A DNA stretch of 64,000 bases from Dehalococcoidia bacterium (GTDB taxonomy: Bacteria > Chloroflexota > Dehalococcoidia > SM23-28-2), in NCBI GenBank assembly GCA_034429995.1, contig DAOUEZ010000003.1, positions 187 through 64,186 of the forward strand. The letters are read 5' to 3'. Made by a program: the position numbers and the translations under genes. This document shows, piece by piece, positions 9,038-20,921 of this stretch (position 1 is its first letter; the number at the start of each line of letters is the position of its first letter). The notes under the pieces were generated by a model. It did not search any database and was not told the origin of the DNA. It saw only the letters and a program-made list of their open reading frames with translations.

Positions 9038-10405
9038 CTATCGCTCCAGGGCGGCCACCACGGCCTCTACCAGGGTCGAGTCGTCCTCGGGAGCGACAGT
9101 GCGAGGGTCGAGGAGGAGCTGGTCGTGCTCGATGCGGCCGATCAGCGGCGGCTGGCCCAGGCGCAGACGCTGGGCCAGCTCCGACACACTCCGGCCGCCG
9201 TGGGCCGGAATGGCCACCACCCTGGTGGGCAGCTCCTCCTCTGGCAAGCTGCCGCCGCCGACCATCGACCGGCCGTGCTGGATGCGAGCGGGCGCGCCGA
9301 TGGCCCGCGCCCAACGGCGGGCCCTTCTTTCGATGCTTGTCAGGGGCATAGCGATCATTCGCCACACAGGGATCTTCTCCAGCGCCTCGCCCCGCACATA
9401 GTGAATGGCGGTGGCGGCCAGGGCGGCGATGGCGGCCTTGCCCATGCGCAGGGGTCGCGCCAGGGGGTGCCGGCGCAGGCGGGCCACCAGTTCCTCGCGG
9501 CCGACGATGATGCCCGCTTGGGGGCCGCCCAGGAGCTTGTCGCCGGAGAACATAGTCAGGTCGGCGCCGGCGGCGACGCTCTCCTGGACTGTAGGCTCGG
9601 CGGCTAGGCTGAACTGGCTGGTATCGATCAGGCAACCGCTGCCCAGGTCGTCCAGAAGCAGGAGGCCGCGCTCGTGGGCCAGACGAGCCAGGTCTTCAAG
9701 GGGGGTCGATTCCACGAAACCGATGATGCGGAAGTTGCTGGCGTGCGCTCGCATGAGAGCGGCCGTGTCATCGGTGATGGCCTGCTGATAGTCGCTGAGG
9801 TAGGTGCGATTGGTGGTGCCCACCTCGACGAGGCGAGCACCGCTCTGGTGCATCACCTCGGGGATGCGGAAGCCGCCGCCGATCTCCACCGCCTGGCCGC
9901 GGGAGATGATGACCTCTCGCTCCTTGGCCAGGGCAGTGAGGGCCAGAAGGACAGCGCCAGCGTTGTTGTTGACGGCCATCGCTGCCTGGGCGCCGCTGAT
10001 CTGGCACAGAAGGGCCTCCAGGTGCGCCAGGCGGTGGCCTCGTTCGCCCTCCGTCAGGTCGAACTCCAGGTTGCTGTAGCCCCGCGATACTGCCTCCATG
10101 GCCGCTATGGCCTCCGGCGAGAGGGGGGCCCGCCCCAGGTTGGTGTGAATGATGACGCCGGTGGCGTTGATCAGCGGTCGGAGGGTGGGCTGGAGAAGGA
10201 GTTCGGCACGAGCCAGCACCGACTCCACTAGCACTTCGGTTGGCGGGCATTCATGGCCGGCGGCGATGTCTCGGCGGGCCTCTTGCAGTTGCTGGCGGAT
10301 CAGCTCGGCCACGCCGTCGCTGGCCATCCGCGAGGCGAGGGGGCGGATGCGCCGGTGGGCCAGCAGGCGGCTCACGCTGGGCAGATTGCGGAAGGGACTG
10401 GTCAC
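9038..10405 (-). CDS. selA: L-seryl-tRNA(Sec) selenium transferase SelA
   Basis: The exact conserved PLP-lysine motif FSGDKLLGGPQAG is present. The protein shows SelA-family similarity over its full length and is 455 aa. Confidence 0.85.
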   Translation of the reverse strand: MTSPFRNLPSVSRLLAHRRIRPLASRMASDGVAELIRQQLQEARRDIAAGHECPPTEVLVESVLARAELLLQPTLRPLINATGVIIHTNLGRAPLSPEAIAAMEAVSRGYSNLEFDLTEGERGHRLAHLEALLCQISGAQAAMAVNNNAGAVLLALTALAKEREVIISRGQAVEIGGGFRIPEVMHQSGARLVEVGTTNRTYLSDYQQAITDDTAALMRAHASNFRIIGFVESTPLEDLARLAHERGLLLLDDLGSGCLIDTSQFSLAAEPTVQESVAAGADLTMFSGDKLLGGPQAGIIVGREELVARLRRHPLARPLRMGKAAIAALAATAIHYVRGEALEKIPVWRMIAMPLTSIERRARRWARAIGAPARIQHGRSMVGGGSLPEEELPTRVVAIPAHGGRSVSELAQRLRLGQPPLIGRIEHDQLLLDPRTVAPEDDSTLVEAVVAALER

Positions 10406-14696: not shown

Positions 14697-15020
14697 GTGC
14701 AGTATCACTGTAGTTTCTGCCAAATCGTTGCTCATGAGGCGGAGGCGGAGATCGTCTATGAGGACGACGAGGTGATGGTGTTTCGCAACCTGCTGCACTG
14801 GGTGCCGGTGATGCTGGTGGCCGTCCCCAAGCGCCACGTCACCCAAGAGGAGCTGTGGCAGAACATGGGTCGGGTGGGGGAGATCGCCGTGCGCATGGGC
14901 CAGGAGCACTGCCCGAGTGGCTTCCGCCTGCTCTCTAACTTCGGCGTCGACGCCGTGCAGAGCCAGCAGCACGGCCACGTGCACATCCTGGGGGGTACCT
15001 TCCTGGGGGAGTACGCCTAG
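14697..15020 (+). CDS. HIT family protein (histidine triad nucleotide hydrolase)
   Basis: Histidine triad [11 protein letters not shown]. Confidence 0.8.
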
Positions 15021-15757
15021 GGGTCGCGTATATCGATCTCGGCGAGGGCGAGCCTCTGGGCCTCGAACAGGCGGCGGATGCCTGTATCCGCCAGGTCGAG
15101 GAGCTCGTTCATCGCCTGGCGGCTGAAGGGGTGGCTCTCCCCGGTGCCCTGGACCTCTACCAGCTCGCCGTCGGCGGTCATCACCACGTTGAAGTCGACC
15201 TCGGCGCGGGCGTCCTCATCGTAGCAAAGGTCGAGCACGGGCACGCCGTCGACGACGCCGGCGCTGGTGGCCGCTACGGGGCAGCGCAGGGGCGTGGAAG
15301 CGATGTCGCCCTGCTGGACGAGTCGGGCGCAGGCCTGGCGCAAAGCGACGTAGGCGCCGGTGATGGCCGCCGTGCGGGTGCCGCCGTCGGCCTGGATGAC
15401 GTCGCAGTCGACGGTGAGGGTGCGCTCGCCCAGGAGGTCGAGCTTGCAGACGGCCCGCAGGGAGCGGCCGATGAGGCGCTGGATCTCGTGGGTGCGGGCG
15501 CCGACGCGGCCGAGGGCGGCCTCGCGGGGGCTGCGGGTCGAGGTGGAGCGAGGGAGCATGCCGTACTCGGCGGTGACCCAGCCGGAGCCGGAGCCGCGGA
15601 GGAAGGGCGGCAGCCTGCTCTCGACGCTGACGGCGCAGAGGACGATGGTTTGCCCCAGCTCGATGAGGGCGGAGCCCTCGGCGTGGGCGAGGTAGCTGGG
15701 GGTGATGCGCAGCTGGCGCATCTGGTCGGGCTGGCGGCCGTCGGGTCGCGTGGTCAT
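15017..15757 (-). CDS. rph: Ribonuclease PH
   Basis: Typical Rph sequence throughout ([10 protein letters not shown]...[11 protein letters not shown]...[18 protein letters not shown]). Confidence 0.9.
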
Positions 15758-15810: not shown

Positions 15811-17811
15811 CTACCGACCTTCGACTGCCGTCGGTGGCGGCTGGGCTGCCTCAAGGTTGGCAACGACAGCCCTCGCGGATTCGAGCAGGTCATCATACGT
15901 CCGAATCGTGAAACGACCTCGGGTATTGATGTTTGATCGGGCAAGGCGGGTCTGATCAGCGGCCGTGAGGCTCGCGCGTCTTCCGATGATTACCAGACCC
16001 TCTGGCGAGAGGCATCGCGGCAAGCGTTTCTGAGCGTATGCGTTGTTCTCCTCCACCCACTGCTGCCAGTCCTCGACCTGCTGCCGAGCGTGGGCCAGGT
16101 CTGCTGCGGGCTGCCCTTGCTTTGTGTAGAGTCGGCGGTTCGGATTCTCGATCTCCACCATTACGTACCGCGCATCAGGGTACTCAAGCACAAAGTCCGC
16201 CTGAAATTCGGCTCCAAGCTCGTGCTCGGTATGAAGGCGCAGAGTGTCTAAGCCGAAGATGAACCGGCTCGCCTCGGACTTCAGGAACTGCTTGATCTCC
16301 TCTTCGTGGACGCCCGGCTTGTCGAGTAAGCCTTCAAACTCGTCGAGTCGATGACGGAACACCTCCGGGCGCAGCCCCGTCTCCGCGTGCACAGCTTGCA
16401 TAGCAGTCTCCAACTCTTCGATCCTGCCTACAGCCAGCGAAAGGGTGTTCGTCAGTCGCGCCTTCTCCATTTCCTCCAGCACACGTTTGAGGAGGTCGGG
16501 AGTCGATTGGAGTTCCCGCCTAGCGCGTGCGGCCAGGGCGTTGATCTCGCCGAAGCGTTTCTGCCGAAACAGCGACAGATACTTGGCGACCCACAAGTCG
16601 ACTGCTACCGGCCAAGCCTGTATCTGCCAAGTTGAAAGTGCTTGGTCTATCAAGCGATCGCCTTTCTCGTAGTCCTCTCGTTCAATCGCGAGCCACCCGA
16701 GATTGTTGATCACAACGGCGTCGTCCGGGCTGAGTTCGTGGGCTCTTGCCAGATCCTTCTCGGCCTTGTTGTACTCCTTCCTGTGTAACCACACGGCTGC
16801 CCGCGTGTTCCAGACAATGGCGTTCTCGATCTCCTCGCCTATCGCCTGGTCACAGGCAGCCACAGCCTCATCCAATCTTCCGAGCTTGTAGAGAGCCAGA
16901 GGCCGGTAGGTCAGAACCTGTCTGTGAATATGGACGTCTTGGGAATTAGCGGCCGCGAAGTCAAGCTCCTCGAGCGCCTCCGCATTTCTATCTAGATCTG
17001 ATAGCGTGAGGCCGCGCTGCAGCGCGAGATAGGCATCCTTCGCTCCGAACTCGATAGCCCGGTCGATGGCCTCGAGAGAAGCGTCGTAGCGCCCCAGAAA
17101 CCTGCTCGCGACGCCGATACCACCCCACGATTTCACGTCCCGCGGGTTCCATTCAAGGACTTGCTCGAAGCAACGGATTGCCTCGCGGAGGTCGTCCTTG
17201 CTGCGGATAGCGAGACCACGGGTCAGGTGAACGCGCGCCTTCCCACGCTGGGCTGAGACGGCCGCTGGCTCTCCCACCACCCCCGGCGTTGGCGACTTAT
17301 TCTGGATGACGTTCTGATATTCCTTGAGGGCCGCCTCCCATTTGCCAAGGTTCGCCAGGCAGTCGCCTATGAGGACGTGCATCAAGGAATTGAAGTGGCG
17401 CGTGTATCGGATCGCCCTTCTGGCGGCGTCTATCGCCTTCTTGGAGCGGCCCAGGCCGTAGTGTGCCTTCGCTGCGGACTCTAGGAGAAGAGGTTCACTC
17501 GGCGAAAGCTTCAGGCCCGTCTGCGCTGCTCGAAGAGCCTCGTCGCTGCGCGCGGCAGCACCCCATGCTTCTGAGAGCACCAACCAGGCGCCGGGCAGTC
17601 TGGGGTCGGCATCTATTGCCCTCTTAGCCGCATTCAGTTGGCGCTTCCCATCGCCTAGCCGCCAATATGCGATAGAAAGGTTCGCCCAGGCTGGGGCGAA
17701 GTCTGGGCGGAGTTGGACACATTTTTCAAAGCTCGCGGCTGCCCGCGCCCAGTTTCTCGTTGCTAGAGCCAGGTGAGCAATGTCGAAGAGCTGATCGAAG
17801 TCGTCGGTCAT
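15811..17811 (-). CDS. TPR-repeat protein with a C-terminal restriction-endonuclease-like (PD-(D/E)xK, DUF4263/Shedu-like) domain
   Basis: Residues ~1-440 are TPR repeats. The C-terminal ~200 aa read [38 protein letters not shown]...[12 protein letters not shown]...GLVIIGR, a D...ExE/K...Q...IIGR pattern resembling DUF4263 (Shedu SduA) nuclease domains. Domain assignment is from memory, not a search. Confidence 0.5.
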
Positions 17812-17946
17812 GGTGCCTATGCCCAGCGAAGTCAGTGCCGGGAGCGGACATCACACTCCCGTGGCCAAGAGGCACTTTTCTTCTCCCAAATGATATCAAC
17901 AAACGCCAGAGGACGCCATGTTGCGCCGTGCCGGTACCGCAGCGCG

Positions 17947-20358
17947 CTACTCCCCACCCCTCTCCGTCTTGATCCAGAGCTTGTGGCCGTCGGTGGATAT
18001 CTGCACGTCGCCGTGGCGGTCGGTGCGGAAGACGGGGCGGCTGCCCAGCCTGTCCAGCGTCTGGGGCGCTGGATGGCCGTACCAGTTGTCCTCGCCCACG
18101 GAGATGACGGCCGTCAGGGGCTCCACCGCCGCCAGGAAGGCGGTCGAGGTGGACGCGCCCGAGCCGTGGTGGGCCACCTTCAGCACGGGCGCGCGCATAT
18201 CAGCGTCGTTGCTTACCAGGTACGCTTCGCCCTCTGCTGCGATGTCCGCCGTCAGGAGGAAGGCGGCATCCCCCAGGCTGACCCTGAGCACCAGCGAGTT
18301 GTCGTCCTCGTCGGCGGCCGGCAAGAGTCCCGGCGGCGGGTGGAGCACGGAGAGGGTGGCGCCGCCGCCCAGGTCGAGCCACTGGCCGGCGAACGCCTCT
18401 CGCTGGGGGATATCCTCGGCGGCGATGGCCTCCTGCCAGGCGTGGAAGAGGGGGCAGTCCTTGGTCAGTGCAGGTGCAAGCACCTGGTCCACGTCGTAGC
18501 GCTCGAGGACGGTCACCAGGCCGGCCAGGTGGTCTTGGTCGGGGTGGGTGGATATTACCAGGTGGAGGTGGCGATCCCAGAACGGCAGGTGGCGGCCGAG
18601 AGCGGCGGTTATCGCTTCGCCGCTGGGGCCGCCGTCCACCAGGATGTTGTGGCCGGCTGGGCTGCGAATGAGGATGGCGTCGCCCTGGCCGATGTCGAGG
18701 AAGGTGACGCTCAGGCGGTCCCCGGGCGAACCCAAGATGACCAGCCAGACGAGGATCGTGGCCAGCGCCAGCACGATGGCGATGCCCAGGGTCGGTAGGA
18801 CGGCGAGCGGGCGGTTCAGGCCCGACAGGAGATCGCCGGCCCAGGCCGGCGGCTGAGGCAGGGTCAGCTTCGCCGGGCGGCGGGCCGTCAGCCAGACGAT
18901 GCCGGCGAGGGCGGCGTAGTAGGCCAGGGCATGGGTGCTGGTGAGGCCGTCGACTGATACAGCGGCGAAGGGGAGGTCGGCCAGCATCTGCACGACCGCC
19001 ACCATGTAGGCGACAGGGGCCCAGGTTATCCAGCCGAGGAAGGTGCCCAGGGTGGGGGCGATCATGCCGCCGGCGGCTGTCAGGGCCGAGCTGACCATTA
19101 TCACGGCGAAGGCGGGCACGGTCAGCAGGTTGGCCGGTATGGCGATGAGGGAGATGCGGTGAAAGTTGACAGCGATGATGGGCAGGGTGAAGGCGATGGC
19201 GGCCATGGTGACGGCCAGCAGCTCGATGACTGCTCGCAGGGGGCCTGCCAGCTCGCGGTCGGGGCTCCAGCGGGCGAGAGCCGCCTCGATGCGCGTCCGC
19301 AAGGGCGACGAGAAGACGGTGAGGCCGAGGGCGGAGGCAAAGCTAAGCTGAAAAGAGATGTCCTTCATGAGCGGCGGGTCGTAGGCTGTCATGCCAGCTC
19401 CCGCTAAGGCGAGCCCCTGGAGGGCACCGCTCTGGCGGCCGAGGGCGGTGGCCACGACGTACATACCGCCCATGATGGCCGCTCGCTGGACGGAGGGCTG
19501 GCCGCCCACAAGCATCGAGTAGGCGATGATGGCCAGCAGGGCCAGCCAGGCAGCGGGCCGGCGGCCGATGAGCCAGGCGAGGGCGGCGATGAATAGCCCC
19601 GCGACGAGGGTCACGTTGTAGCCGGAGACGGCGACCAGGTGAGAGGTATTGGTGTCGTTGAGGTCTTCCTTCAGGTCGTCGGGCAGGGAGGCTCGTCGGC
19701 CGAGGAGGATGCCCTGGGCGAGGGCGGCCTCGGGCTCCGGCAGGGCATCCTCGAGGGCTGAGGACAACTCGCCGCGCAGGTCGTAGATCCAGGTGCGGAT
19801 GGGGTTGCCCTGGCCTGTGTCGAGCAGGGACGTGCTGGGGTAGTTGACGATGGAGCCGATGCCCTGGCGGGCCAGGTAGTCGCGGTAGTTGAAGTCGTCG
19901 AGCACGGGCGGCGTCTCGAGCTTCCCCTCCAGCTCGAGGAGGTCGCCGTAGTCGTAGCGGGGGAAGAGGCCGCCGCGCATGAGAACGCCGCCGGAGGTGC
20001 TCTGCCAGCGGCCATCGACCAGCAGCTCGCGGACGGAGAGGCGCAGCCTGAGTGAGCTGCCCCGCTCGTCGGGCTCGCCGGAGACGACGGTGCGGAAGCG
20101 GACGGCAGGGCCATCGTTGTGGAGGGCGATCCCCTGGGGGTCGGCCGATGGCAGGCTCGACTGGTAGAGCCAGGCGCCGCCTACCAGAAGGGCGGCTGCC
20201 GTAGCGGCCCAGAGTAGGGCGAAGGCAGCGCGGCGGGTGGTCAGAGGTACGATGGCTGCCAGGAGAGCGGCGGCCGCTATGGCCCAGGGGCTGCCCTGGG
20301 CGAAGGCTGCCGCTGCCATGCCCAGCAGCCAGCAGAGGGCCAGGTAGCCAAGGATCAT
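17947..20358 (-). CDS. comEC: DNA internalization competence protein ComEC/Rec2 (with C-terminal metallo-beta-lactamase domain)
   Basis: Polytopic membrane N-terminal part and a C-terminal MBL motif VISTHPDQDHLAGL. Confidence 0.85.
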   Translation of the reverse strand: MILGYLALCWLLGMAAAAFAQGSPWAIAAAALLAAIVPLTTRRAAFALLWAATAAALLVGGAWLYQSSLPSADPQGIALHNDGPAVRFRTVVSGEPDERGSSLRLRLSVRELLVDGRWQSTSGGVLMRGGLFPRYDYGDLLELEGKLETPPVLDDFNYRDYLARQGIGSIVNYPSTSLLDTGQGNPIRTWIYDLRGELSSALEDALPEPEAALAQGILLGRRASLPDDLKEDLNDTNTSHLVAVSGYNVTLVAGLFIAALAWLIGRRPAAWLALLAIIAYSMLVGGQPSVQRAAIMGGMYVVATALGRQSGALQGLALAGAGMTAYDPPLMKDISFQLSFASALGLTVFSSPLRTRIEAALARWSPDRELAGPLRAVIELLAVTMAAIAFTLPIIAVNFHRISLIAIPANLLTVPAFAVIMVSSALTAAGGMIAPTLGTFLGWITWAPVAYMVAVVQMLADLPFAAVSVDGLTSTHALAYYAALAGIVWLTARRPAKLTLPQPPAWAGDLLSGLNRPLAVLPTLGIAIVLALATILVWLVILGSPGDRLSVTFLDIGQGDAILIRSPAGHNILVDGGPSGEAITAALGRHLPFWDRHLHLVISTHPDQDHLAGLVTVLERYDVDQVLAPALTKDCPLFHAWQEAIAAEDIPQREAFAGQWLDLGGGATLSVLHPPPGLLPAADEDDNSLVLRVSLGDAAFLLTADIAAEGEAYLVSNDADMRAPVLKVAHHGSGASTSTAFLAAVEPLTAVISVGEDNWYGHPAPQTLDRLGSRPVFRTDRHGDVQISTDGHKLWIKTERGGE

Positions 20359-20921
20359 GGCCCTACGGTGATCAGGTCGCGGATCTGGTCGAATACGGAC
20401 TGGGGGATGAGCTTGCGCTCGACGAGCTCTTCGATGCGAGAGAAGGGGCCGTCGCGCTCGCGGGAATCGACGATGCTCTGGGAGCGCATCTCGCCGATGC
20501 CGGGGAGGGAGTCAAGGACGGCGGCGGGGGCCGTGTTGATGTCAACCAGCTCGTTCTGCGAGGCCTGGGCGGAGCCCAGGACTGCCTGCTCGCCGAGGCG
20601 GGGCACCAGCACCTGGTCCTCGTCGTGCAGGCGGCGGGCGAGGTTGATGGCCTCCACGTCGGCATCCGCGGCGGGGCCGCCGGCGGCCTCGACGGCGTCT
20701 ATCCAGCGGTCGCCATCGTTGAGGAAGTAGACACCGGGACGATTCACGGCGCCGGCGATGTAGACCTGAATTTCGGAGGCAGAGGGCGTTTCGCCCAGGT
20801 TGATCTCTAACGGCTGTGGGCCCTGCAATTGCCTATCGACAAAGGCGCCCATGCCAATAAGCAGGGGCGCAGCCATCAGGGCGATGACCAGCCAGCGATA
20901 GCGCTCCACCCAGGCAAGCAA
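20355..20921 (-). CDS. comEA: Competence protein ComEA (helix-hairpin-helix DNA-binding)
   Basis: N-terminal TM segment, SLBB-like region (QVYIAGAVNRPGVY) and C-terminal HhH (VDINTAPAAVLDSLPGIG). The gene overlaps the comEC start by 4 nt. Confidence 0.8.
   Translation of the reverse strand: MLAWVERYRWLVIALMAAPLLIGMGAFVDRQLQGPQPLEINLGETPSASEIQVYIAGAVNRPGVYFLNDGDRWIDAVEAAGGPAADADVEAINLARRLHDEDQVLVPRLGEQAVLGSAQASQNELVDINTAPAAVLDSLPGIGEMRSQSIVDSRERDGPFSRIEELVERKLIPQSVFDQIRDLITVGP

Follow-up and report, generated by a model that had tools for sequence, protein, structure and literature searches.

Shedu is an established single-gene defence, and its highly diverse N-terminal domains are thought to set what each enzyme senses. 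The characterised SduA proteins read nucleic acids: the E. coli enzyme (PDB 8PS4, 8PS5; Loeff et al., bioRxiv 10.1101/2023.08.10.552762) recognises free DNA ends through an N-terminal clamp, and the B. cereus enzyme (PDB 8TI8, 8TI9; Gu et al., PMC10441436) presumably reads ssDNA or RNA through its Whirly domain. [quoted passage not shown] Sensing of proteins has been described in two other systems: Avs2 and Avs3 recognise phage terminase through their TPR domains, and in Upx a sensor is coupled directly to a PD-(D/E)xK nuclease with no NTPase. A literature search pairing Shedu with TPR or tetratricopeptide retrieved nothing relevant; TPR may be among the 79 N-terminal clusters of Gu et al.

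The gene analysed here (hereafter named TPR-SduA) lies in a 64,000-nt stretch of Dehalococcoidia DNA (the window), in the following arrangement.

15017..15757: rph, directly downstream of TPR-SduA
15811..17811, minus strand: complete gene encoding TPR-SduA (666 aa; the coordinates include the stop codon), ATG start (from the ORF list, public copies and colinear homologues)
17812..17946, minus strand: 135-nt intergenic spacer, from the end of comEC to the start of TPR-SduA
17947..20358, minus strand: comEC, directly upstream of TPR-SduA
20355..20921, minus strand: comEA, upstream, beyond comEC

Identical copies of the 666-aa protein were found on 10 contigs (NCBI, JGI, Logan), and the gene order was the same on the three of them that were retrieved for comparison, which indicates that the gene is not an artefact. 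Both an assembly artefact and a one-off fusion were ruled out by these 10 contigs together with full-length homologues of ~660 aa (29–78% identity), which make up a single protein family that is colinear through TPR array, linker and nuclease. This family comprises about five clusters at 50% identity and is known mainly from metagenomes; it was present in 1 of 185,579 species genomes, and no phage-borne member was detected on the viral contigs of IMG/VR with the patterns used.

Three regions were delimited in the protein.

16513..17808, minus strand: N-terminal TPR solenoid (aa 2–433; 24 helices, ~12 TPR-like repeats), putative sensor or regulatory domain
16321..16500, minus strand: linker, made of a long helix (aa 438–478) and a second helix (aa 482–497), from the secondary structure of two models
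15847..16320, minus strand: SduA_C (DUF4263) PD-(D/E)xK nuclease domain (aa 498–655)

A first-pass annotation, made from the sequence alone, had read the protein as a TPR array followed by a C-terminal nuclease region of ~200 aa with a restriction-endonuclease-fold core of the Shedu/DUF4263 type, and had called for an HMM search of that region. All of the peptide motifs that it cited are present in the protein, and the search bore out the identity. PF14082 (SduA_C) matched aa 502–643 with 57.6 bits (gathering cutoff 27; E 2.2e-15), covering profile positions 3–159 of 159, and nine SduA models of PADLOC matched at E <= 1e-4, led by PDLC00389 (E 3.4e-43, aa 486–651). The predicted fold is an elaborated PD-(D/E)xK nuclease closest to the solved SduA structures. 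The C-terminal 170 aa are hence a bona fide SduA_C PD-(D/E)xK domain. The order of TPR (aa 2–433), helices (438–497) and C-terminal nuclease (498–655) is that of Type 1 Shedu. TPR-SduA truly belongs to the Shedu family, though as a rare form, and its TPR domain is unusually long. Identity as an Avs/STAND receptor was rejected, since the central STAND NTPase is absent: no NTPase family was found between effector and TPR in Pfam, NCBIfam and PADLOC scans, and the full-length model contains TPR helices, linker and nuclease only.

Pfam TPR families (TPR_1/2/8/16 and related ones) cover ~aa 7–450, with E values of 6e-33 for TPR_2 and 1e-26 for TPR_1. The AlphaFold2 model of the full-length protein had a mean pLDDT of 85.3, with most of the TPR region above 85, and the best structural match of the solenoid was the superhelical TPR domain of OGT (1w3b, TMt 0.73). 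Structural matches were limited to generic TPR scaffolds, and no defence-specific sensor model was obtained for the array (Pfam TPR-S, E 0.018; PADLOC PDC-M71B, E 1e-4). Its specific homologues (E < 1e-100) are all SduA_C fusions, the next matches being generic TPR proteins at E ~1e-27. The array is found only with the SduA_C nuclease, and its use as a sensor module with other effectors is therefore unsupported. The linker helices probably correspond to the linker domain of Shedu, as we infer by comparison with residues 118–170 of B. cereus SduA.

TPR-SduA is probably a Type 1 Shedu immune nuclease, a single-gene defence in which a TPR regulatory region of ~430 aa would keep the enzyme autoinhibited until a trigger binds. 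The SduA_C domain, the conserved active site and the colinear TPR family together support the first-pass reading of a TPR sensor on a Shedu-type defence nuclease. By analogy with the B. cereus and E. coli enzymes, the protein would form a tetramer through its nuclease domains, and the TPR and linker region would hold the nuclease inhibited. An infection-associated ligand would bind the TPR superhelix and lift the inhibition, and by comparison with the TPR sensors of Avs proteins the most plausible candidate is a protein or peptide of the phage. DNA would then be nicked or cut without sequence specificity, and replication of the phage or of other invading DNA would be halted. Our more specific proposal is offered tentatively, namely that this is a protein-sensing Shedu, in which the superhelix of 12 repeats binds a phage protein or a phage-modified host protein and the signal passes through the helical linker to the E-x-E active site.

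The bound partner may belong to the phage or, less probably, to the host. In comparison with the family member L019, dN/dS was 0.18 for the TPR region, 0.50 for the linker and 0.11 for the nuclease, which is the most constrained part; over the whole gene it was 0.18, with a dS of 0.83. Both the TPR and nuclease halves are under purifying selection. With sensing of the guard type the protein would still be a Shedu defence nuclease, but its TPR region would have a host protein or peptide as ligand, or would serve in higher-order assembly, and the nuclease would fire when phage activity modifies or depletes that partner. This reading draws on the purifying rather than diversifying selection on the TPR region and on the vertical retention of the gene, within one lineage, at a single chromosomal site. 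These two features suit a conserved partner no less than a fast-evolving phage target, and OGT-type TPR solenoids serve generally as scaffolds for peptide binding. However, no conserved neighbouring gene offers itself as a partner candidate, and the dS of the TPR-SduA gene is three times that of its flanks, an elevation along the whole gene that suggests allele turnover. Host-directed sensing is considered unlikely, although it is the strongest of the alternatives.

The active site was compared with that of B. cereus SduA, in which D249, E264 and Q295 are experimentally required. A profile built from 5 sequences gave an E value of only 0.47 against the SduA structures of the PDB, whereas a broader 14-sequence profile aligned with 8ti8_A at E 7.5e-6; the latter alignment was used for the assignments below, with the exception of E503. 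The clade referred to is the large Shedu clade in which motif III is almost always E-x-E.

16303..16305, minus strand: E503, candidate motif I Glu in the first core helix, present in all 204 clade members aligning there
16195..16197, minus strand: D539, motif II Asp (B. cereus D249), invariant in the clade
16147..16155, minus strand: motif III, E553-I554-E555 (B. cereus E264-I265-K266)
16069..16092, minus strand: helix alpha-C, H574-A-R-Q-Q578-V-E-D581, in which the motif IV Gln, Q578, aligns with B. cereus Q295
15979..15984, minus strand: G610-R611 of the 'IIGR' motif, which follows the fourth core strand; GR in 194 of 214 clade members

Of the canonical motifs I–IV, motif II (D539), the first Glu of motif III (E553) and motif IV (Q578) have aligned counterparts. 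For motif I, the invariant E503 is the putative equivalent of B. cereus E204, from its position in the fold rather than from an alignment. G610-R611 lies opposite 'AG' in the B. cereus enzyme and 'GR' in the E. coli one. The catalytic Lys of B. cereus, K266, aligns with E555, the second E of the V-E-I-E segment, so that motif III has a Glu in place of its Lys. A catalytically altered variant had been suspected in the first-pass annotation, with N556 in the place of the Lys. The loss of the Lys was confirmed, but N556 was rejected as its replacement, because the profile alignment puts E555 at that position and residue 556 varies across the clade (N, R, A, S, P or K). Nor is the change peculiar to TPR-SduA: E-[I/L]-E occupies motif III in 210 of 211 clade members, most of which are RelA/SpoT fusions, and for this reason E-x-E is regarded as a conserved clade variant, neither a lesion nor a sign of decay. 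Helix alpha-C carries two further clade-specific residues, H574 and D581 (in 193 and 206, respectively, of ~213 members). As judged from the sequences, a conserved active-site set would consist of E503, D539, E553-x-E555 and Q578 together with the clade-specific H574 and D581.

Loss of the motif III Lys could also have left the SduA_C domain as a DNA-binding or scaffolding module that no longer cleaves. In favour of such a dead or repurposed domain, E555 stands where B. cereus has K266, and no invariant Lys or Arg that might replace the lost residue was found among the clade sequences, K564 being only partly conserved. Against it, E503, D539, E553 and Q578 are invariant in ~210 sequences, H574 and D581 are also conserved, and the nuclease is the part of the protein under the strongest constraint. 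BamHI has a lysine-less E-x-E site of the PD-(D/E)xK type, in which carboxylates and metal ions take part in catalysis, and by analogy the E-x-E motif of TPR-SduA is expected to remain catalytic in the same way. Activity is known from PD-(D/E)xK enzymes whose Lys has been altered or relocated (PMC3424549). We therefore regard a catalytically dead domain as improbable.

The neighbourhood of the gene was analysed next to that of its homologues. The family spans five unrelated neighbourhoods, a small sample of independent contexts, and these have no gene in common; there is no conserved partner gene, in agreement with the single-gene system that had been put forward in the first-pass annotation. 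The survey of defence genes that it had asked for gave a divided answer. One lineage adjoins an Hma defence system together with PDC-S19 and HEC-01, but three of the five contexts, the window included, are housekeeping-like, and no defence genes were found beside TPR-SduA in the window or in the neighbourhoods of L009 and L012–L014. A transposase lies ~10 kb from the homologue on the L007 contig. In relatives, TIR genes (ThsB-like) have been inserted beside the locus, where they adjoin truncated SduA alleles. No tRNA genes, integrase or Rfam matches were found at the TPR-SduA site, and a search for insertion scars yielded short chance repeats only. The GC3 of the gene is 0.69, in comparison with 0.80–0.94 in its neighbours (0.89 in comEC), a composition that points to a foreign origin. 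This composition and the raised dS of the gene both favour a mobile character of the locus.

Adjacency to comEA and comEC, both of which lie directly upstream on the same strand, had been taken in the first-pass annotation as a hint of a link with DNA uptake. A housekeeping nuclease that processes or polices transforming DNA together with ComEA and ComEC would suit the 135-nt spacer, in which neither a consensus promoter nor a terminator turned up in a scan (TPR-SduA may be co-transcribed with comEA-comEC and rph), as well as the retention of the arrangement in related populations and the action of E. coli SduA, which works on free DNA ends and blocks the propagation of linear DNA. However, the adjacency is confined to close relatives that have the entire neighbourhood in common (83–94% protein identity), whereas relatives at 29–51% identity occur in four other contexts without competence genes, and comEA and comEC are absent beside L007, L009, L012, L014, L015 and L028. 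Because of this distribution a functional link was rejected, and with it a component of the Com machinery, there being no conserved association with comEA/comEC across the homologues. Moreover, in L001–L005 only the final ~350 nt of comEC are left although the SduA nuclease gene is retained, in L025 and L026 it is called as two genes, and the GC3 difference noted above separates the two genes in composition. The adjacency appears to be a coincidental, lineage-specific synteny at an inherited insertion site, apparently without statistical association with comEC, and a competence-linked role is very improbable.

Related populations carry alleles at the same site that lack the entire sensor; their DNA homology with the window breaks off within the linker.

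16354..16356, minus strand: recombination or deletion breakpoint at codon R486, located by comparing the window with L001, L004 and L005 in blastn

By tblastn, homology of L001–L006, L022 and L023 begins at aa 488. Neither tblastn nor blastx detected a TPR relic ahead of the truncated alleles, and the segment that replaces the sensor contains no protein-like ORF. Such sensor-less alleles, 189 aa long, persist in nature, which is unexpected if removal of the sensor always makes the nuclease toxic. Full-length and sensor-deleted alleles at one chromosomal site constitute a natural version of the B. cereus Shedu truncation experiment and, if the protein-sensing reading is true, the latter would encode an enzyme that is either always active or silenced. 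That the window copy is itself a functionless remnant of a horizontally acquired defence gene in the course of being lost, as these alleles, their relaxed dN/dS of 0.44 and a split gene in the Chloroflexi MAG SZUA-185 might suggest, is highly unlikely, since this copy and at least six close homologues have an intact frame (663–669 aa), the overall dN/dS is low in spite of the high dS and every active-site residue is intact in the window copy.

In comparison with B. cereus SduA (380 aa), the 666-aa TPR-SduA carries a TPR solenoid of ~430 aa in place of an sPC4/Whirly N-terminal domain of ~117 aa, and E-x-E in place of E-x-K in motif III. Its motif II Asp follows the conserved Glu E529 by 10 residues, whereas the B. 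cereus enzyme has a long 'motif II loop', and H574 and D581 of helix alpha-C distinguish its clade. Unlike the N-terminal clamp of E. coli SduA, a TPR solenoid is not known to recognise DNA ends, and it more probably binds a protein or peptide. A Glu at the canonical motif III Lys position is found in BamHI-type sites as well. For the PD-(D/E)xK superfamily, variation of the active-site signature is documented (PMC3424549).

The closest relatives of the nuclease outside the TPR family are the RelA/SpoT–Shedu fusions (Type 1D of Gu et al.; among them P0023 of Rhizobium and P0029 of Bradyrhizobium), with 39–47% identity. These share the E-x-E / H / Q / D signature with TPR-SduA but are far more numerous, and their ~350-aa proteins have a small N-terminal fold resembling an alarmone synthetase (PF04607) instead of TPR. 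TPR-SduA thereby draws attention to a whole Shedu clade of apparently unexplored chemistry, which lacks the canonical catalytic Lys, consists largely of RelA/SpoT fusions and numbers at least 200 clusters at the 50% identity level.

The logic proposed for TPR-SduA is similar to that of Avs, in which a large sensor (TPR in Avs1–3) binds a conserved phage protein and activates a fused nuclease, and to that of Upx, in which such activation takes place without a STAND NTPase, via a PD-(D/E)xK domain. With its long, family-specific solenoid, TPR-SduA would be a tractable case in which to ask whether the same Shedu nuclease can also be placed under the control of a protein ligand. If such a ligand is real, it would link Shedu conceptually to pattern recognition of the Avs and Upx type. 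TPR-SduA extends the known Shedu family and does not overturn the current understanding of it.

TPR-SduA is encoded by an uninterrupted ORF in the following region of the window:

15811..17811, minus strand: TPR-SduA ORF, 666 aa, ATG start
20355..20921, minus strand: comEA, upstream of TPR-SduA
17947..20358, minus strand: comEC, upstream of TPR-SduA
15017..15757, minus strand: RNase PH gene (rph), downstream of TPR-SduA

Residues ~7-450 were matched by many Pfam TPR families (TPR_2, E 6e-33) and residues 502-643 by PF14082 (SduA_C), which scored 57.6 bits where the curated cutoff is 27. Strong matches to PADLOC Shedu models were also obtained (top E 3.4e-43, residues 486-651), and the NCBIfam scan gave TPR-family matches only, all sub-threshold. 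This confirms, including by the profile search that the first-pass annotation had proposed for the C-terminal region, its reading of a TPR array joined to a Shedu-like domain beside comEA-comEC. The identical 666-aa sequence was found on 10 contigs (NCBI, JGI and Logan), and all three of these whose gene order was inspected, one from NCBI assembly GCA_964608485.1, match the window; this recurrence and shared order rule out an assembly or frameshift artefact as the source of the fusion.

An AlphaFold2 model of residues 440-666 was built on 57 homologues (mean pLDDT 92.6). Its top Foldseek matches in the PDB were E. coli SduA (8ps5, E 5.7e-7) and B. cereus Shedu (8ti9, 8ti8), followed by the nickase Nt.BspD6I and EndoMS, so that the structure prediction, also proposed at first pass, places the nuclease closest to the solved SduA structures. 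In the full-length model (pLDDT 85.3), residues 2-433 form 24 helices (~12 TPR-like repeats) and are followed by a 41-residue helix (438-478), a helix at 482-497 and the nuclease domain. For the TPR part, the closest superposition was with the superhelical TPR domain of O-GlcNAc transferase (OGT; 1w3b, TMt 0.73), and the predicted OGT-like scaffold is of the peptide- or protein-binding type.

The B. cereus motifs described by Gu et al. (PMC10441436) are E204 (I), D249 (II), E264 and K266 (III) and Q295 (IV). A nuclease-domain profile from 14 sequences, aligned to 8ti8_A (E 7.5e-6), paired D539 with D249, E553 with E264, E555 with K266 and Q578 with Q295. The canonical Lys is therefore replaced by Glu: the first reading was right that it is missing, but wrong by one position in naming N556 as the replacement. 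Position 556 is variable across relatives (N, R, A, S, P or K). Among 214 related proteins surveyed, 211 could be scored for D, E-x-E and Q, and 210 of these carried D, E-[I/L]-E and Q, the exception being the homologue P0173 (E-I-K). E503, likely the motif I residue as judged from its place in the fold, was present in all 204 clade members aligning at that position; D581 and H574 were found in 206 and 193 of about 213. Since this signature is kept across the proteins surveyed, the E-x-E site is, at the level of sequence, a conserved clade-wide variant and not a lesion, and a catalytically dead domain, in which the missing Lys would mean lost activity, is not favoured by the data. BamHI carries Glu at the PD-(D/E)xK lysine position. 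More generally, altered or relocated signature residues are described as tolerated in this superfamily (PMC3424549). The E-x-E clade (P0004-P0199) comprises at least 200 representative clusters, mostly RelA/SpoT (PF04607) fusions, and has a His and an Asp on helix alpha-C that are both conserved.

When the nuclease region was searched exhaustively with HMMER against 1.84 billion representatives, it gave 2,123 matches at E <= 1e-3, 50 of them at E <= 1e-30. In the top three, which are 660-667 aa long, the domain is likewise C-terminal, and the TPR plus SduA_C architecture was confirmed by Pfam in P0060, P0061, P0062, P0064 and P0086. The remaining close relatives were mostly RelA/SpoT-SduA_C proteins of ~350 aa, an architecture placed by Gu et al. 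(PMC10441436) among the enzymatic 'Type 1D' Shedus. One 431-aa homologue (P0139) joins a WD40 beta-propeller to the same E-x-E type domain, a second protein-interaction repeat scaffold serving as a Shedu N-terminal domain. TPR-SduA proteins are colinear over their full length at 29-51% identity, and closer relatives share 75-79% over the TPR region. When the TPR region alone was searched, matches below E 1e-100 were exclusively SduA_C fusions, and generic TPR proteins followed only at E ~1e-27; the array is thus dedicated to the nuclease, and a shared TPR module is not supported. The family is rare: among 185,579 species-representative genomes, a single Chloroflexi MAG carries it, and no member was found in the IMG/VR viral contigs with the patterns used. 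In the Chloroflexi MAG SZUA-185, the orthologue (L007:9558-11548, L008:210-2200 and L010) is split into 147- and 515-aa ORFs, and two independent assemblies agree on where the frame changes. A true pseudogene, a gene in two parts or a sequencing error common to both assemblies could explain the split; at the syntenic locus L014 the gene is intact, at 643 aa.

Family members were found in five unrelated neighbourhoods:

Context 1 (window, L019, L025/L026): comEC - TPR-SduA - rph
Context 2 (L015, L028-L030): divergent from an Hma system (HmaA E 1e-173, HmaB E 7e-104), with PDC-S19 and HEC-01 candidates
Context 3 (L007/L010, L014): peptidase M1 - TPR-SduA - DinB
Context 4 (L012/L013): short-chain dehydrogenase - TPR-SduA - uncharacterised 694-aa protein gene
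Context 5 (L009): beside a chlorite dismutase-Rieske gene

The five contexts have no gene in common with one another, as would be expected of a single-gene system; this speaks against the functional tie to DNA uptake that adjacency to comEA-comEC had suggested at first pass; a competence-linked role is not favoured. The Hma system beside the P0061-cluster TPR-SduA genes (L015:1-9674, L028:270-7656) looks complete, with SNF2 helicase HmaA, DUF1156 methylase HmaB, DUF499 and an embedded PDC-S19 (DUF3644), and L015 also carries a HEC-01-like AAA_21/DUF4276 pair. In L025 (3695-6103) and L026 (4435-6843), comEC is annotated as two genes, of 353 and 446 aa, and an intact TPR-SduA follows immediately downstream, which suggests that comEC is disrupted in this related lineage too.

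The window gene is compositionally foreign, with a GC3 of 0.69 in both halves versus 0.80-0.94 in its neighbours (0.84-0.94 in comEA, comEC and rph). Neither flanking repeats, tRNA genes nor Rfam elements mark an insertion at the gene, and no consensus promoter or terminator was found between it and comEC or rph. The whole 64-kb window, which includes selA (9038-10405) and other housekeeping genes, has zero tRNA genes and zero Rfam families at gathering threshold. In the related population L019, the flanking proteins share 83-94% identity with those of the window, and TPR-SduA just 78% over its whole length. The dN/dS values were 0.18 (TPR), 0.50 (linker) and 0.11 (nuclease), indicating purifying selection on the TPR and nuclease domains; a decaying passenger gene, for which relaxed constraint would be expected, is not favoured. 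Its dS of 0.83 is ~3x that of comEA, comEC and rph (0.21-0.29), a contrast that its weaker GC3/codon bias may inflate, and suggests older or exchanged alleles. High dS and low GC3 together fit allele exchange or foreign origin.

At the same site (window 15811-16354), other related populations (L001-L006, L022, L023) encode a nuclease-only protein of 189-192 aa, for example:

L001:6744-7313: sensor-less SduA allele
L022:~1489-2067: sensor-less SduA allele
L023:~1615-2079: sensor-less SduA allele

From rph onwards, homology to the window DNA extends as far as nt 16354 (codon 486, second linker helix), breaks off there, and begins again with the final ~350 nt of comEC; the intervening segment, which differs between L001 and L022, has no protein-like ORF. 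Because the sensor-less nuclease domains are 79-82% identical to that of the window, and those of full-length P0060-P0062 only 54-70%, these alleles are read most simply, from sequence, as derived sensor deletions. The dN/dS between two of them was 0.44. In L001-L005 a segment with genes for ThsB-like TIR proteins stands in place of the comEC body, of which just the last ~350 nt are left; the site therefore turns over, and in L001, L002, L003 and L005 a defence-type island took the place of most of comEC beside the truncated SduA. On this segment (L001:294-5786) lie genes for two ThsB-like TIR proteins, one LD_cluster (SLOG-like) protein and one protein of 500 aa matching PADLOC 'TPR' models.

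[quoted passage not shown] The sensor-less alleles mimic this delta-NL truncation, yet persist. E. coli SduA senses DNA ends via an N-terminal clamp. For TPR-SduA itself the family, fold, conserved variant active site, dedicated TPR array, selective constraint and lack of a conserved partner were established; by analogy, its TPR solenoid and helical linker would hold a nuclease-domain oligomer inactive, an infection-specific ligand would release it, and the freed enzyme would nick or cut DNA. With its superhelix resembling that of OGT, and with Avs TPR sensors and Upx as precedents, this ligand would most plausibly be a protein or peptide for TPR-SduA. Guard-type sensing, in which the protein sensed would be the host's, is not favoured by the data.

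The core of the first-pass reading, a TPR sensor on a Shedu nuclease, is supported with two corrections (E555 instead of N556; no evidence of a competence link). TPR-SduA belongs to the known Shedu family, and PADLOC-type tools would label it accordingly. The literature searched, which for Gu et al. means the main text, does not mention a TPR-Shedu. Relative to characterised Shedus, TPR-SduA differs in its long, family-specific TPR sensor, undescribed in that literature, and in belonging to a large clade without the canonical catalytic lysine.
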